Shown: one piece after another, positions 24,231 to 29,840 of the stretch
How the letters are laid out: each line of letters begins with the position of its first letter
Numbering within the stretch: the stretch's first letter is position 1
Assembly: GCA_011944185.1 (NCBI GenBank)
Contig: GCA_011944185.1_3921.1
Length of the DNA stretch: 40,116 nucleotides
Direction: 5' to 3' (one strand)
DNA from: a phage
The notes under the pieces: generated by a model
Seen by the model: the letters and a program-made list of their open reading frames with translations, nothing else
Told to the model about the DNA's origin: nothing
Database searches by the model: none
Program-made: the position numbers and the translations under genes

Positions 24231-25085
24231 ATGTTTGAAAAGATTGATAGTGTTTATTATAAAACACTTGATGAAAGGACTGTAACACAGTTTAAAGATA
24301 AATTTATCTATACAAGTATCTTGAAAGCAATCACTGATGAGCTACAAACACTAGAGGATGTTTGCTGGCAGATGCACACAGAGAGAAATATCAGGACGTC
24401 AGTAGGTCAACAACTTGATAATATTGGCTCACTGATTAAAGTTCCTAGACCTTTAGGTGCTGATGATGAAACATACAGAGCTATGCTTTATATCCAAATC
24501 TTCCTAAGACGTTCTGATACTACTCCAACATTCTTGCAAAAAGCAATTATGACATTGTATGGTGCAACTTTCTCTCAGATTTTTGAGCATATTACTCCTA
24601 AGACTGGTGGTATCGTTATCCGTATTAATACTAGAAAAAGCGTTCTTGATGCTGCATATACACTGTCAAAGATTTCTGCAACAACCACTGGTTCCGCTGT
24701 TATCTTAAGAGATGTTACTTTAAATGGGACTGCTTGGACACCTGTAGAGGTTGCTGATTCATCACTTGCTATTGTTGATGATAAAGAGAACTGGTTTGTA
24801 ACTGATGCTAACAGAGGTCTGGTCACAAATAACACTGGTGGCTCTCTGGAGTCCAACCTAGTAGGGAGTCTTACAGATGCTGGTGTTATTGATGGTTACT
24901 TTAAGGTTGACAGAACAGCAAACTCACAGAGCGATGATTATATGACTGTAGATAGGTCTAATAAGAGTGGTTATTTCATCGTTGGTAAAGAAGCTATTGC
25001 AGGTGGTGCATACGGAATCATGGCTGAGGTTGCACAAATTGTCAAAGGCAGAAAAGATAAATCACAACAAGAAGGAAATTCTTAA
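24231..25085 (+). CDS. baseplate/tail-fibre attachment protein (gpI-like, tentative)
   Basis: 284-aa ORF between the J-like gene and the fibre genes. Confidence 0.4.
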
Positions 25086-25387
25086 TGGCAGTTCTAAATT
25101 GGTCTACAAACGAAGTAGATACTGATGGTAATCAGTTAAAAGTTTTACCACCACCGGAAGTTCAAGAGACAGGTCTTTTAAAGGGTGAGCCTATGGGTAG
25201 GCAGTGGTTCAACTATATTATCAACTACCTGCTGAATAAAGTAAATGGCACTGTTGGTGAAGTTCGTTCATATGCAACTGAGCAACCAGATTTAGTGGCT
25301 AATGGCTGGAACCTCATTAAGTCTGAGACAGGGACTGCATCAACAAGTACAAGAAACCTTTACACATATGAATATGTAGGAGCTTAA
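25085..25387 (+). CDS. hypothetical tail protein (100 aa)
   Basis: coupled ORF upstream of the tail fibre gene. Confidence 0.4.
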
Positions 25388-25389
25388 TA

Positions 25390-26565
25390 ATGGCAGTAGG
25401 TGAAATTCAAATTAGTGCCTTGCCACAAGCGGCCTTACCAATTGATTTGAGTGATATCTTCCACCTTAAGCAAGGTGTTGAGGATAAAAGATGTACGCTT
25501 GAGCAGTTGTTAGCACCTCACGCATCTCTGAGGAATAATCCTCATGGTGTAACTAAATCACAAGTGGGTCTTGATAATGTTATTAACTCTCTTCAATTAG
25601 TTGCAGCTAATAACTTGTCAGACATTGTGAATGTTGCTGAGGCAAGAGCAAATCTACAAATTATGTCGTCAGAGGAAGTGAATAACTTAATTCAGCAACA
25701 TATTGACGACAAAAGTAACCCACACAATACAACGAAAGCACAGGTTGGTTTAAGTAATGTTCAGAACTGGACAACATCTAATCTGTACAATGAAGATGCT
25801 GATAAGTATGCTACAGCGAGAGCAGTGAATAACTTATACAAAGCTATCCAAGCATCATATCCAGTGGGGACTATTCATCTGTCTGTTAACTCTGCTAACC
25901 CATCCACTTACTTGCTTTGTGGTGGCACTTGGGAGTTAGTTTCTAAAGGTAGGGCACTAGTTGGTTATGATACAGATTCTAGACCTGTTGGTTCAATGTT
26001 TGGTTCTCAGACTGTAGCATTAACAAATAATAATTTACCAGCACATACTCACTCTATCTACCTAACAGGTGGTGGTCATACACACTCTGCAAGTGTATCT
26101 ATCTCTAGTTTTGATTATGGTTCAAAAAGCACATCAACTTTTGATTACGGTACAAAAACGACTAATAGTGCTGGTGCTCACACTCACACGTTTAGTGGCA
26201 CAACAAGTAATGCTGGTAACCACAACCATAGAGTTCCTATGAGGGGTAATGATAGGGGTGGCACAAATGCTATTACTGCATCTGCTGATGCTGGTGTTGG
26301 TAATGCTATGTATACTGATTTAGCTGGTGCTCACACCCATAGCTTCTCAGGTACAACTGCATCATCTGGTGCTCATAGTCATACTGTCGCAATTGGTGCT
26401 CACAGCCACACTGTTAATATTGGTTCGCACAGTCATACAGGCACTGTTACTGTTTCTAGCTCTGAGCATACACACTCAGGGACAACTGGTTCTGTTGGTG
26501 GTGGTCAAGCATTCAGTGTTGAGCAGCCATCTTTTGTAGTGTATGTGTGGCAGAGAACAGCTTAA
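25390..26565 (+). CDS. tail fibre protein with HxH repeats
   Basis: repeats NPHGVTKSQVGLDNV / NPHNTTKAQVGLSNV; C-terminal domain rich in HTHS, NHNH, AHSHTV, SHSHTG motifs; C-terminus ...VWQRTA. Confidence 0.8.
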   Translation: MAVGEIQISALPQAALPIDLSDIFHLKQGVEDKRCTLEQLLAPHASLRNNPHGVTKSQVGLDNVINSLQLVAANNLSDIVNVAEARANLQIMSSEEVNNLIQQHIDDKSNPHNTTKAQVGLSNVQNWTTSNLYNEDADKYATARAVNNLYKAIQASYPVGTIHLSVNSANPSTYLLCGGTWELVSKGRALVGYDTDSRPVGSMFGSQTVALTNNNLPAHTHSIYLTGGGHTHSASVSISSFDYGSKSTSTFDYGTKTTNSAGAHTHTFSGTTSNAGNHNHRVPMRGNDRGGTNAITASADAGVGNAMYTDLAGAHTHSFSGTTASSGAHSHTVAIGAHSHTVNIGSHSHTGTVTVSSSEHTHSGTTGSVGGGQAFSVEQPSFVVYVWQRTA

Positions 26566-26575
26566 TTTCTTTACA

Positions 26576-26595
26576 GGGGCTTTATAGCCCCTTTT
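26576..26595 (+). terminator. stem-loop after the first tail fibre gene (weak terminator)
   Basis: ggggct-ttat-agcccc followed by TTTT. Confidence 0.4.
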
Positions 26596-26611
26596 AAGAG
26601 GAAAACTTATA

Positions 26612-29161
26612 ATGGCAGATTACAAATTGAGTCAATTAAACTCAATCGACACAATTCGTTCAGAAGACCTATTGCACATCAGAGTTAAGAAAAGACCTGA
26701 AATGTTGGGTGACGAAGACCGTAGAATGACCTATCAAGACTTCTTAGCTTCCTTCAAACTAGAAAGGTTTGTTCAGATTGCTGGGAGTAATATGACTGGG
26801 GATTTAGGTATTGTCAAGTTACTTTACGGTGGTAAGGCAGTGTTTGACCCAACAGGTTCTTCTGAGATTACTATTGGGGATGTTTTAAAGACTTTTAAAC
26901 TTAATGCAAGTGGTCTTAAACTCACTATTGCAGACTCTTCAAGGTCAGCAACTGTTTATCATACTCTGAATAAGCCAAGCCCTAATGAGCTTGGTATGAG
27001 AACTAATGAAGAGAATGATGCAAGATACGCAAGACTTGCTATCACAAACACATTCTCTGGAACTCAAAATATTCAAGGTGATGCTAACTTACTTCGCCTT
27101 AGAAACCAAAATGCAAATAATGCACAATATATTGAAGGTGTAAACCTAGATGGTTCGGCTAGATGGTGGGTTGGTATTGGTAGTAATGGCTCTGACGAAG
27201 TAAAGCTGTACAATAACAAATACAACTCAGCCTTGACTGTTGCAAGTAATGTCTCTGTTAATAAGTCTTTAGCAATTACTGGTCAAGTTCAACCTTCGGA
27301 TTTCTCTAACTTAGATGCTAGATACTTTACTCAGACAGTTGCTAATCAGAGATTTGCACAGTTAACTGCCAATAATAATTTTACTGGCACTAACACGTTT
27401 AGCAGAAATCTAACCATCATCAGTGACAGTGCTGCTTTAAGGTTGAAAAATGCAACAGCTAGCTCACTATTCATTCAGGGTGTTGACTCTCAGAACACTA
27501 ACAGGTGGTATGTAGGGAACGGGGATAACACAGCCTCTGTGCTGCTACACAACTATGTACACGGTTCAAATATCAGGCTTGATAATGGCTATATCTCAGT
27601 CAACCAGAACTTCAGAATCACTGGTCAAGTTCAACCTTCGGATTGGACTAATATTGACTCTAGATATATTCCGGCAGCAACATTAAGTACGATTGCAAGA
27701 ACTAATGCAAGGAATACTTTTAATGGTGTACAGACAGTTGTTACGGATAATGAAGGTCTGATTGTTAAAAACTCTACTCAGAATAGACCATTATATATTC
27801 GTGGTGTGGACACTACTAATGTATCAAGATGGTGGATTGGTGTTGGTGGTGCTGACACGAATGATGTTACCCTAAATAACAGTTATTCTGGAACCCAATT
27901 GGTTCTCGGGAATACAACATCATACATTAACAAAACATTGACTATTGCTGGACAAGTTCAACCTTCAGATTTCTCTAACTTAGATGCTAGATACTTTACG
28001 CAAAGTGCTAGTGATAGTAGATACCTAAGAATCAGAAGCACTAGCTTCAATGTGGGAAACACTGATAAGTGGGCTAAAATTGCCACTGTTGTGATGCCAC
28101 AATCAGCATCCACTGCTGTTATTGAGGTATTTGGTGGGTCAGGTTTTAATATTAATACACCAAACCAAGCAGGTAAATGTGAAATTGTTCTGCGAACTTC
28201 AAATAACAATCCAAAGGGCTTAAATGTTGTTGCTTGGAGAACATCAGAGAACACCATTGTCAGGGATATTGGTTATGTGAATACTTCTGGAGACACCTAT
28301 GATATTTACTATCTTGCTGGTACGTATCAAAACAGCACAACGACAAGGGTTCAGTCTTCTAGTAATGCAAGTGTACAGTTGTTTGAAGTCCCACAGACAT
28401 TTGATGATGCTCCACAAGGTATTGTGAAGGGTACAATTGCAAAATACTACACGAGTTTGCAAAAACCAACCCCTTCAGATATTGGTGCATACACTAAAGC
28501 AGAAACTGACCAGAAGATTGCAGAAGCAATTAGTGACTCTACAGACCTGAATAAAATCTATCCAGTAGGTATTGTAACGTGGTTTAACAGTAATGTTAAC
28601 CCTAATACAGCACTTCCTGGGTTAACTTGGACGTACCTGAATAATGGTGTTGGTAGAACTATTAGAATTGCAGCAGCAAACGGTTCAGATGTTGCTACAA
28701 CTGGTGGTTCAGACTCTGTAACGCTGTCTGTTGGTAACTTACCTTCACACACGCACAGCTTCTCTGCTACTACTTCATCATTTGACTATGGTACTAAGAC
28801 TTCTAGCACAACTGGTAACCACAACCACAACAGAGGTACTATGGAGATTACTGGTTCATTTGGTTACTTCAGAAGTGACGCTAGTAGCTTCTACACAGCA
28901 AGTGGTGCATTCTACCTCGGTAGTCAGGCAGGTTCTAAAGGGTATACTGGTAACAACTTCACTAATGGTATCCCTGTCAACTTCAACGCATCAAGAAACT
29001 GGTCTGGTGTAACGAATACAACAGGTAACCACAGCCACACTGTTGGTATTGGTGCTCACAGCCACACAGTTAGCGGTAACACAGGTGGTACTGGTTCTGG
29101 TTCAGCATTTAGTGTTACTAACCAGTTCTATAAGTTAATGGCTTGGGTAAGAACTGCTTAA
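26612..29161 (+). CDS. long tail fibre protein with internal tandem repeats and HxH-repeat C-terminal domain
   Basis: 849 aa; three copies of ITGQVQPSD(F/W)(S/T)N(L/I)D(A/S)RY; C-terminus paralogous to 25390..26565 (NLPSHTHSF, SSFDYGTKTS, GNHNHN, GAHSHTV, ...WVRTA). Confidence 0.8.
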   Translation: MADYKLSQLNSIDTIRSEDLLHIRVKKRPEMLGDEDRRMTYQDFLASFKLERFVQIAGSNMTGDLGIVKLLYGGKAVFDPTGSSEITIGDVLKTFKLNASGLKLTIADSSRSATVYHTLNKPSPNELGMRTNEENDARYARLAITNTFSGTQNIQGDANLLRLRNQNANNAQYIEGVNLDGSARWWVGIGSNGSDEVKLYNNKYNSALTVASNVSVNKSLAITGQVQPSDFSNLDARYFTQTVANQRFAQLTANNNFTGTNTFSRNLTIISDSAALRLKNATASSLFIQGVDSQNTNRWYVGNGDNTASVLLHNYVHGSNIRLDNGYISVNQNFRITGQVQPSDWTNIDSRYIPAATLSTIARTNARNTFNGVQTVVTDNEGLIVKNSTQNRPLYIRGVDTTNVSRWWIGVGGADTNDVTLNNSYSGTQLVLGNTTSYINKTLTIAGQVQPSDFSNLDARYFTQSASDSRYLRIRSTSFNVGNTDKWAKIATVVMPQSASTAVIEVFGGSGFNINTPNQAGKCEIVLRTSNNNPKGLNVVAWRTSENTIVRDIGYVNTSGDTYDIYYLAGTYQNSTTTRVQSSSNASVQLFEVPQTFDDAPQGIVKGTIAKYYTSLQKPTPSDIGAYTKAETDQKIAEAISDSTDLNKIYPVGIVTWFNSNVNPNTALPGLTWTYLNNGVGRTIRIAAANGSDVATTGGSDSVTLSVGNLPSHTHSFSATTSSFDYGTKTSSTTGNHNHNRGTMEITGSFGYFRSDASSFYTASGAFYLGSQAGSKGYTGNNFTNGIPVNFNASRNWSGVTNTTGNHSHTVGIGAHSHTVSGNTGGTGSGSAFSVTNQFYKLMAWVRTA
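27281..27333 (+). repeat. intragenic direct repeat copy 1 (tail fibre)
   Basis: 53-nt segment nearly identical (3 mismatches) to 27950-28002; diverged copy at about 27623-27672. Confidence 0.7.
27950..28002 (+). repeat. intragenic direct repeat copy 3 (tail fibre)
   Basis: near-identical to 27281-27333. Confidence 0.7.
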
Positions 29162-29240: not shown

Positions 29241-29438
29241 ATGCCTACAATCCTAGCAATTCTTCTAAAAAATCTAGGTAGCTTCTTCTGGAAACTCATT
29301 TTATCCCTTTTAAGTGAATACATGATTGAGAAAGTGTTCTTTAAGCTTGCAAGATACCTTGCGAGTAAAACAGACACACCTATTGATGATGAGTTCGTAG
29401 ATAACTTAGAAAAAGCTTTTAAGGGGGAGAACAAATGA
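29241..29438 (+). CDS. small hydrophobic protein (65 aa), possible holin-like membrane protein
   Basis: hydrophobic N-terminal half ILAILLKNLGSFFWKLILSLL; position after the tail fibre genes. Confidence 0.35.
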   Translation: MPTILAILLKNLGSFFWKLILSLLSEYMIEKVFFKLARYLASKTDTPIDDEFVDNLEKAFKGENK

Positions 29439-29806
29439 AGTGGCTAGAGGATGCTTTTAAAAACAATATTGGTGCAATTGTAGTTGGTATTTTTAGTGTT
29501 ATTGGAATGTATACCACTATGCAAGTTTCAAGTGGTAAGCAAGAAGTATCTGTCACAACAAAGTTACAGCAGCTAGATAATTATTCCAAAAGTAACTATT
29601 CAGCTATTCGTGATTTACAGTCTGACATGAGACTGATTCAGCTAGGGATGGAGAACCAGAAAGTCCAGTTAGAGAATGTTAAGGGTGAGAATGCGAAACT
29701 TACCAAAACTCTTGATAAATTCTCTGACAGTGTGAACAATCTGGCCCAATCAGTATCAGCCTTGCAAGCTATTACTGAAAAGAACACAAAGAATACTGAA
29801 AAATAA
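29435..29806 (+). CDS. membrane-anchored coiled-coil protein (123 aa), possible spanin-like or fibre-associated
   Basis: N-terminal TM segment IGAIVVGIFSVIGMY followed by a heptad-like coiled-coil region. Confidence 0.35.
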   Translation: MKWLEDAFKNNIGAIVVGIFSVIGMYTTMQVSSGKQEVSVTTKLQQLDNYSKSNYSAIRDLQSDMRLIQLGMENQKVQLENVKGENAKLTKTLDKFSDSVNNLAQSVSALQAITEKNTKNTEK

Positions 29807-29814
29807 AATTTTAA

Positions 29815-29840
29815 GGCTCCCGTAAAAAGGAGCCTTTTTT
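29815..29840. terminator. bidirectional stem-loop terminator between convergent modules
   Basis: ggctcc-cgtaaaaa-ggagcc followed by TTTTTT on + and preceded by an A/T-rich run; located between the + gene ending 29806 and the - gene ending 29845. Confidence 0.55.

Follow-up and report, generated by a model that had tools for sequence, protein, structure and literature searches.

The window analyzed in this study is a 40,116-nucleotide stretch of phage DNA (NCBI GenBank assembly GCA_011944185.1, contig GCA_011944185.1_3921.1), and the part of it that is of interest here, positions 25390-29161, consists of two adjacent open reading frames (ORFs) on the + strand (25390-26565, 391 amino acids; 26612-29161, 849 amino acids). 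As judged from homology and gene order, the window is that of a Felixounavirus, a Felix O1-like, wV8-like coliphage, and the two ORFs are its short tail fibre (STF) and long tail fibre (LTF) genes. It is very probable that the two products are the baseplate fibres of a Felixounavirus close to wV8, that both end in tips of the T4 gp37 type, and that the LTF shaft is composed of cassettes exchanged at conserved linkers, with the number of shaft modules held at three. The core of this interpretation, two fibres with HxH-studded tips of the T4 gp37 type, is correct and was already known, at the sequence level since 2015 from phage VpaE1 (PMC4690856) and at the structural level since 2025 from phages Bas63 (PMC12609058) and Sf14 (PMC11821841). 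No description of LTF shaft modules behaving as exchangeable and permutable cassettes was found in the literature searched, and this behaviour is an incremental addition to the well-known theme of tail-fibre mosaicism.

Identity of the two fibre genes

When the fibre region was compared to GenBank phages with megablast, 236 records matched, nearly all of them Felixounavirus. The best match was Escherichia phage wV8 (EU877232), with 97.8% nucleotide identity over 94% of the region. The genes for proteins of 489, 284, and 100 amino acids, followed by STF and LTF, have the same order and sizes in the window, in wV8, and in Bas63. In the cryo-electron microscopy (cryo-EM) structure of Bas63 (PMC12609058), the corresponding proteins are wedge 2, wedge 1, the long-fibre platform, the short fibre gp26, and the long fibre gp27. 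The fibre pair of the window therefore sits 3' of two wedge proteins and the 100-amino-acid LTF platform and 5' of two small ORFs and the convergent td/frd genes; the order in wV8 is the 489-amino-acid baseplate protein, the 284- and 100-amino-acid proteins, the two fibres, two small ORFs, and then a convergent thymidylate synthase gene. STF is 76% identical to Bas63 gp26 across all 391 residues, and LTF is 61% identical to gp27 over residues 1-472 and 70% identical over residues 610-849. The closest proteins in a large sequence collection were 96% (STF) and 93% (LTF) identical. The first-pass annotation, which was made from the sequence alone, had called both genes tail fibre genes, and homology to Bas63 and wV8, synteny, and matches to PHROG tail fibre families (Table 1) all bear this out.

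Database labels for these genes vary. In the GenBank record of Bas63 (MZ501086, 19499-23048), gp26 is labelled 'long tail fiber protein' and gp27 'tail fiber protein', at odds with the assignment made later by cryo-EM. Among other relatives, the label 'hypothetical protein' is given to one fibre gene (in vB_EcoM_H12, E9, and D4) or to both (in the O157 typing phages, ZX4221, and ECOH1).

Exchange of modules in the long-fibre shaft

The LTF shaft contains three modules of 114, 114, and 109 amino acids, which are ∼40% identical in pairwise comparisons and each of which ends in an 18-amino-acid linker (designated a1, a2, and a3). The Pfam family PF20744 (gp37_trimer) matched LTF in three stretches (E = 2.3e-80; 265.2 bits in total compared to a cutoff of 21.7), and module 2 matched the pyramid domain of T7 gp17 (4A0T; 7BOZ residues 368-442) with an E value of ∼1e-6. 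A maximally sensitive hidden Markov model (HMM) search of the whole LTF protein detected no degenerate module copies beyond these three. The three modules of roughly 110 amino acids proposed in the first-pass annotation are thus real, and so are the near-identical DNA repeats that it described within the gene, because 27281-27333 and 27950-28002 differ at only 3 of 53 nucleotides. The two 53-nucleotide stretches are the core of a 76-nucleotide repeat family with three copies, spaced 342 and 327 nucleotides apart, that have 86% and 68% identity to the reference (the 68% copy is at 27600-27675). Exact repeats between the linkers are 25 (a1/a2), 32 (a1/a3), and 14 (a2/a3) nucleotides long.

The relatives used for comparison were 121 long fibres, each representing a cluster at 90% identity, many of them from metagenome or read-archive assemblies. 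The possibility that the repeats were an assembly artefact was examined and rejected, since more than 100 independent sequences (120 of these clusters), as well as many GenBank isolates, share the same architecture.

Comparison with wV8 located the boundaries of one exchanged segment. Identity between the two phages is 92-100% per 100 nucleotides on either side of a patch of ∼340 nucleotides in which it is ∼50%. Between 27200 and 27800 there are 139 mismatches, all but 6 of which lie within 27337-27675 and none beyond 27675, so that the divergent patch corresponds to module 2 and is bounded by the ends of a1 and a2. A second boundary is evident in phage Pr103Blw. Its megablast match to the window stops at 28003, the last base of a3, and resumes at ∼28485, at the start of the collar; between these positions is the domain designated here the knob, which in Pr103Blw is of a different, shorter type, and identity falls to 29-46% exactly there. 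The junctions in these two phages place both copies of the 53-nucleotide repeat at observed mosaic junctions.

The same pattern was found throughout the relatives. When the 362 module cores of the 121 long fibres (linkers removed) were clustered at ≥65% identity, they fell into 17 discrete types in 33 arrangements, with seven different arrangements among named isolates alone. Pairwise identity between cores has two separate peaks in slots 1 and 2 (for slot 1, at 35-50% and at 75-100%, with almost no pairs at intermediate values) and is more continuously distributed in slot 3. Five loci (modules 1 to 3, knob, and tip) form 53 haplotypes among 117 proteins, and all four allele combinations are present for most pairs of loci. 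Module types are also found in more than one slot. Type A, the type of module 1 in the window, occupies slot 1 in 93 of 121 relatives, slot 2 once, and slot 3 twice, and types C, F, J, and N are each found in two slots. P0078 and P0042, for example, have the permuted arrangements A-H-A and F-C-F. A further case is Salmonella phage DaR-2019a (MK965969, 20490-23012), in which positions 757-1379 of the gene match positions 433-1055 of the window LTF gene with 90.9% nucleotide identity. DaR-2019a has modules 1 and 2 of the window in slots 2 and 3, 324 nucleotides downstream, and an unrelated module in slot 1, yet the total length of the LTF is unchanged and the sequences on either side remain in register. 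This arrangement indicates an out-of-register exchange of modules.

Recombination at the linkers is therefore well supported by these comparisons, with the conserved 18-amino-acid linkers coinciding with the mosaic breakpoints, and the best-supported product of such recombination is a change in the identity and order of modules at constant length. In the mechanism proposed here, the conserved linkers, with their exact repeats of 25 to 32 nucleotides, would provide patches of homology for exchange between co-infecting relatives, and whole modules, the knob, and the tip would move as cassettes, in some cases out of register. Tétart, Desplats and Krisch reportedly proposed in 1998 that conserved His-box motifs are the recombination sites of gp37/gp38 in T-even phages.

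An explanation without recombination is that the linkers are nearly identical because they are under purifying selection with biased codons, while the module cores drift; tolerance of mutation of this kind is the first of three possibilities offered in the Bas63 paper (PMC12609058). All 18 residues of a1 and a3 are identical, and a1 is almost invariant across relatives (a3 is polymorphic), as selection on the linker would predict. Furthermore, codons are already shared at 14 of 24 identical residues elsewhere in modules 1 and 3, and substitutions in a1 and a3 do not co-vary in the six phages compared. However, 14 of the 18 linker codons are identical compared to 7.9 expected from the codon usage of the window (P = 0.003), and drift would yield a continuum of core identities rather than the bimodal distribution in slots 1 and 2. 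Nor does drift account for all four allele combinations at most segment pairs, for the same module type in different slots, with two modules moved by one slot in DaR-2019a at 91% nucleotide identity, or for the near-identity of wV8 on both sides of a ∼340-nucleotide patch at ∼50%. An origin without recombination thus seems unlikely. Both the codon identity of a1 and a3 and their lack of co-variation would be explained if an earlier out-of-register exchange had brought a linker with it.

Three considerations weigh against exchange at the linkers. Any mosaic model would place breakpoints at the linkers, since breakpoints can only map to sequence that is conserved. Assemblies from metagenomes and read archives could contain chimeras joined at the conserved linkers, although the GenBank isolates are equally diverse. 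The lack of co-varying a1/a3 substitutions in the six phages means that ongoing gene conversion is not demonstrated.

The first-pass annotation had also proposed that recombination between the repeats can change fibre length and host range. The part of this proposal that concerns recombination agrees with the position of the linkers at mosaic breakpoints and with the 17 module types in 33 arrangements, but the part that concerns length does not hold, as 120 of the 121 long fibres have exactly three modules. The authors of the Bas63 study likewise noted that repeat number is invariant among the Felixounaviruses of the International Committee on Taxonomy of Viruses (PMC12609058). The sole length variant, P0038 (740 amino acids), is on a 23-kb metagenome contig with 6.7x coverage (ENA ERZ1505402 NODE_674). 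It lacks exactly module 3 as the result of an in-frame deletion of 327 nucleotides (window positions 27645-27947 are missing) that leaves a hybrid a2/a3 linker, and the junction (contig positions 6990-7070) falls in the 24-nucleotide overlap of linkers a2 and a3. P0038 is either a natural length variant or an assembly error. This contig, together with the exact repeats of 25 and 32 nucleotides in the window, is what would be expected if the internal repeats mainly gave rise to repeat-number variants whose altered fibre length changed host range. That view is nevertheless quite unlikely in light of the constancy of repeat number in both sets of phages, the low coverage of the contig, and the lack of a second copy of the deletion junction in IMG/VR, JGI metagenomes, and GTDB genomes searched with a degenerate 74-nucleotide pattern. 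The only full-length match to the junction in GenBank was DaR-2019a, which was considered as a second deletion variant and rejected because it has three modules in shifted order.

The constancy of three modules, as opposed to their identity and order, is probably maintained by selection, with the geometry of the virion constraining fibre length. In the retracted state of Bas63, both fibres dock along the sheath, and the head of the short fibre is located at a defined sheath ring (PMC12609058), which is why a geometric constraint on fibre length appears probable.

The variability of the shaft was unexpected to the authors of the Bas63 study, who offered mutation tolerance, host recognition, and escape from defence as explanations and did not mention recombination (PMC12609058). 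Recombination would explain this variability. The discreteness, re-assortment, and occasional permutation of the module types speak against simple mutation tolerance and leave the other two explanations, host recognition and defence escape. It is conceivable, though we put this forward only tentatively, that the LTF shaft is a three-slot combinatorial system in which at least 17 old, discrete module types are re-assorted at linkers, the number of slots is fixed by virion geometry, and variability results from selection acting on the shaft, by way of lateral contacts with glycans or of escape from fibre-sensing defences, rather than from drift. If so, the shaft modules, in addition to the tip, would be determinants of host range or immunity.

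These results divide the LTF into exchangeable units (three shaft modules, knob, collar, and needle/head) with breakpoints at identifiable conserved linkers. The natural variants show that modules tolerate moves between slots provided that three are kept, which offers rational splice points for chimeric fibres. The added value for fibre engineering and host-range prediction is modest.

Receptor-binding tips and the knob

Sequence comparison identifies the C-termini of STF and LTF as receptor-binding tips of the T4 gp37 type. STF residues 145-362 matched the T4 gp37 tip (PDB 2XGF) with an E value of 8e-27, and the HMMER alignment places each of the seven HxH motifs of T4 in register with one of STF, at residues 230, 264, 278, 315, 329, 338, and 347. 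The double xDxGxK repeat on the C-terminal side of the first T4-matching HxH is also conserved. Beyond the T4 set, STF has HxH motifs at residues 219 (LPAHTHS), which is beside the collar and without a T4 counterpart, and 360 (EHTHS), for a total of nine. LTF matched 2XGF more weakly (E = 6e-7), with a reduced set of four motifs at residues 713, 737, 807, and 816. In shuffles that preserved composition, the mean number of HxH motifs was 1.4 for STF and 0.16 for LTF, and none of 20,000 shuffles reached the observed counts. Every C-terminal histidine is part of an HxH (18 of 18 in STF residues 216-391 and 8 of 8 in LTF residues 701-849). The proteins end in VWQRTA (STF) and AWVRTA (LTF). The HxH arrays, the WxRTA termini, and the comparison to T4 fibre tips in the first-pass annotation are all upheld by these results.

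The collar was recognized by the Pfam family PF21939 (Gp10_C), clearly in STF (residues 154-276; E = 3e-18; 67 bits), for which gp10 structures in the PDB matched too, and at the borderline in LTF (E = 8e-6; 27.3 bits compared to a cutoff of 27). In 47 STF homologues, Y385, W387, and R389 are invariant, as are His230/232 and His347/349, and His219, His278/280, and His315/317 are at least 90% conserved. The last nine residues of LTF are invariant in 54 sequences. In contrast, the head segments vary. Nucleotide identity of the STF head segment to phages JLBYU28 and JH2 is 48-58%, compared to 66-92% in most of the flanking 100-nucleotide intervals, and the 66-amino-acid head segment of LTF (residues 740-806; 28829-29029) has 34-77% nucleotide identity to JN01, JLBYU28, JH2, and Pr103Blw.

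The number of HxH motifs is nine in 53 of 70 STF homologues, even where their positions differ, with a range of 6-11 and one 281-amino-acid entry that has none. LTF homologues have four (78 proteins), six (40 proteins), or two (two proteins). Relative to Bas63 gp27, the window LTF has a longer head segment and has lost the two HxH motifs on either side of the head. Since the Bas63 proteins, which are of similar length, have seven motifs (STF) and six (LTF), motif number does not simply scale with the length of the needle.

In T4 gp37, the HxH motifs coordinate iron along the axis of the needle, as reported by Bartual et al. in 2010 and restated in the Bas63 paper (PMC12609058). Metal binding at the HxH motifs of STF and LTF is predicted by homology. 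Each fibre is presumably a homotrimer, on the model of T4 gp37 and of the virion structure of Bas63. The tip would consist of a collar and a needle, the latter formed by a chain that extends to a small head domain and then returns. With two histidines per chain, each HxH would supply six histidines in the trimer for the octahedral coordination of a metal on the fibre axis (Fe2+ in T4), for up to nine predicted sites in STF and four in LTF. These sites may act as structural rivets that stiffen the needle, and the variable head segment would contact the receptor, which for the genus would be the core of lipopolysaccharide (LPS); LPS is the known receptor class for the genus.

It is also conceivable that the HxH arrays are not structural metal sites and instead function in catalysis, in pH sensing, or in presenting iron to host siderophore receptors. 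Iron presentation to siderophore receptors is a hypothesis found in the literature. Close relatives whose fibre proteins are of similar length have different numbers of HxH motifs, which suggests that not every layer is essential. However, all seven T4 iron-site motifs are in register, the known receptor of the genus is LPS and not a siderophore transporter, and in T4 the histidine side chains face the trimer axis with the metal buried (2XGF, as summarized in PMC12609058). Thus, a role other than a structural metal site is highly improbable.

Structure prediction was performed with AlphaFold2 (AF2) on single chains of full-length STF and of LTF residues 465-849. The STF model has a confident collar, long paired strands at residues 222-237 and 350-365 (block-mean predicted local distance difference test [pLDDT] score, ∼68-89), and a head of low confidence. 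Some points weigh against the proposed reading of the tips. Both tips were modelled poorly as single chains, pLDDT being below 50 in the STF head and in most of the LTF tip, and no gp37 fold was recovered for either (in Foldseek, the STF model had no significant match, the best being gp10 with E = 0.2); single-chain models cannot show trimeric HxH geometry. Furthermore, a gp38- or gp57A-like fibre chaperone was searched for only among the immediate neighbours, which are without annotated function, and none was found there, as the ORFs at 25085-25387, 29241-29438, and 29435-29806 match only PHROG families of no known function.

The two tips belong to one domain family (BLASTP E = 6e-16; 31% identity over 270 columns). 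The first-pass annotation had termed them paralogous, which, on present comparisons, appears valid in a broad sense only: homology stands, but a recent duplication within the genome is unlikely because the STF tip fits T4 gp37 far better than the LTF tip does (E = 8e-27 versus 6e-7) and identity between the tips is only 31%. The data would be better explained by independent acquisition or by ancient divergence. Shared gp37 homology of both fibres was reported for VpaE1 in 2015 (PMC4690856). The cryo-EM study of Bas63 in 2025 described, for each of its two fibres, a collar, an HxH needle, and a head resembling those of T4 gp37 (PMC12609058), and in Sf14 a T4 gp37-like distal tip is present on the longer of the two fibres (PMC11821841).

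Two DNA repeats are located in the tip-coding regions. A 20-nucleotide exact repeat encoding IGAHSH, at 26392-26411 and 29048-29067, is the sole exact repeat of at least 20 nucleotides between the two fibre genes. It is a potential site of tip exchange between STF and LTF or of deletion; no STF/LTF tip chimera was seen among 70 STF homologues. A 27-nucleotide tandem repeat at 26367-26432 (76% match over 2.4 copies) codes for the IGAHSHTV(A/N) units in the ascending strand of the STF needle, and slippage in it would gain or drop one HxH layer.

The knob of LTF is 150 amino acids long and was modelled with a block-mean pLDDT of 72-91 (residues 11-150 of the LTF 465-849 model). In Foldseek searches its predicted fold matched the tailspike-like protein WceF (6TGF; E = 7e-7; probability, 1.00; 162-164 aligned columns; root mean square deviation, 4.1-4.5 Å), as well as 6E1R and 6C72. 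The matches range from E = 7e-7 to 4e-3 at 10-16% sequence identity, a likeness of predicted folds that does not establish common ancestry or function with tailspike domains. A sequence search of the PDB with the knob alone returned nothing significant (a weak match to 6TGF residues 536-579), and no Pfam family matched. The knob matches five other PHROG families, three of which are annotated as tail fibre or tail protein, and is thus a mobile fibre domain. There are three knob types among the relatives, of 153, 94, and 93 amino acids. It could be a second glycan-binding site.

Other features and comparison with known systems

Table 1. Coordinates in the window of the fibre genes, their parts, and the stem-loop between them (aa, amino acids)
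Feature	Position	Strand	Basis or remark
STF gene (short tail fibre, 391 aa)	25390..26565	+	Bas63 gp26 counterpart; wV8 gp82 'putative tail fiber protein GP37'; PHROG 2097 tail fibre, E = 2e-139
STF N-terminal baseplate-binding region and helical shaft (aa 1-140)	25390..25809	+	Sequence; AF2 helices 37-46, 67-78, 82-88, 94-106, 140-156
STF collar (∼aa 141-218)	25810..26043	+	Pfam PF21939 Gp10_C; aligns to T4 gp37 2XGF collar and T4 gp10; AF2 pLDDT 87-90 at aa 150-180
STF descending needle strand, HxH at aa 219, 230, 264, 278	26044..26229	+	230, 264, and 278 align to T4 gp37 HxH 1-3
STF head (distal tip; aa 281-314), hypervariable among relatives	26230..26331	+	Length similar to T4 head segment between HxH 3 and 4
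STF ascending needle strand, HxH at aa 315, 329, 338, 347, 360, and C-terminus YVWQRTA	26332..26562	+	HxH search; 2XGF alignment
Stem-loop GGGGCU-UUAU-AGCCCC followed by UUUU	26575..26592	+	Between STF stop codon and LTF ribosome-binding site
LTF gene (long tail fibre, 849 aa)	26612..29161	+	Bas63 gp27 counterpart; wV8 gp83 'putative tail fiber protein'; PHROG 4277 tail fibre, full length
LTF N-terminal baseplate-binding region and first shaft (aa 1-127)	26612..26992	+	88-100% nucleotide identity to all isolates compared; nearly invariant columns
LTF module 1 (aa 128-241, 114 aa), ending in linker a1 GQVQPSDFSNLDARYFTQ (27281-27334)	26993..27334	+	Pfam PF20744; module HMM; type A
LTF module 2 (aa 242-355, 114 aa), ending in linker a2 GQVQPSDWTNIDSRYIPA (27623-27676)	27335..27676	+	Module HMM; cassette swapped relative to wV8
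LTF module 3 (aa 356-464, 109 aa), ending in linker a3 GQVQPSDFSNLDARYFTQ (27950-28003)	27677..28003	+	Module HMM; missing from one deletion variant
LTF knob (aa 465-614, 150 aa), predicted beta-sandwich	28004..28453	+	AF2; Foldseek; swapped as a unit among relatives
LTF collar (∼aa 615-712)	28454..28747	+	Gp10_C; run of invariant columns in 54 sequences; 94-99% nucleotide identity to all isolates
LTF needle and head (aa 713-849), HxH at aa 713, 737, 807, 816, C-terminus MAWVRTA	28748..29158	+	HxH search; 2XGF match

The stem-loop between the two fibre genes has a folding energy of -16.8 kcal/mol (z = -3.1) and is a rho-independent terminator in the annotation of wV8; it did not pass a generic terminator scan. 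The stem-loop could set the ratio of STF to LTF expression.

In the STF shaft, the motif NPHxxTKxQVGLxNVxN is present in two copies 60 amino acids apart, at 25537-25587 (residues 50-66) and 25717-25767 (residues 110-126). A 30-amino-acid stretch around the second copy matches many unrelated PHROG tail families, which suggests that it is a widespread fibre linker motif.

Two small ORFs are located directly 3' of LTF, at 29241-29438 (65 amino acids) and 29435-29806 (123 amino acids), and both match PHROG families of no known function. The second is labelled 'putative holin' or 'holin' in the annotation of some relatives and has a faint match to Rz-like spanins. A bidirectional terminator-like hairpin is present at 29813-29836, at the convergence of the structural operon (+ strand) and the td/frd genes (- strand), and the GC skew changes sign at the same place (∼30000).

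The closest known systems are those of other Felixounaviruses. The genes for wV8 gp82 and gp83 and their Felix O1 homologues are the same genes in the same order with the same intergenic hairpin, and the wV8 LTF differs from that of the window at module 2 (27337-27675), where it has another cassette with ∼50% nucleotide and 43% amino acid identity. Bas63 (JohannRWettstein, MZ501086) shares synteny, the N-terminal baseplate-binding domain, the collar, HxH needle, and head on both fibres, the LTF shaft repeats, and identical C-terminal motifs, YVWQRTA in STF and MAWVRTA in LTF. The STF of the window is 391 amino acids long with nine HxH motifs, whereas that of Bas63 has 382 amino acids and seven motifs. 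The LTF of the window is also longer (849 versus 784 amino acids), with four HxH motifs compared to six, a longer head segment, and another knob type. The module cores of the two phages are 26-59% identical, and slot 1 of Bas63 is nearest to module 3 of the window.

More distant systems resemble individual parts of the fibres. The predicted fold of the knob is like the C-terminal beta-sandwich of tailspike-like proteins (Pantoea WceF, 6TGF; Acinetobacter phage tailspikes, 6E1R and 6C72), but in those proteins the domain is C-terminal to a beta-helix enzyme, whereas the knob is internal, between shaft and collar. Each LTF module of ∼110 amino acids matches PF20744, and module 2 aligns to residues 368-442 of T7 gp17, in which a single pyramid domain precedes the tip domain; LTF has three tandem copies with conserved helical linkers between them. 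T4 gp37 (2XGF) resembles the tips in its collar, its needle, a head segment of similar length, and a hydrophobic-x-R-x-A C-terminus. However, the T4 needle has seven HxH motifs, compared to two additional ones in STF (residues 219 and 360) and only four in LTF, and T4 differs further from the window in that no gp38- or gp57A-type chaperone gene is adjacent to the window fibre genes. The T4 tip is carried on a long fibre composed of four proteins, whereas the tips encoded in the window are fused to short, single-polypeptide fibres directly on a simple baseplate.

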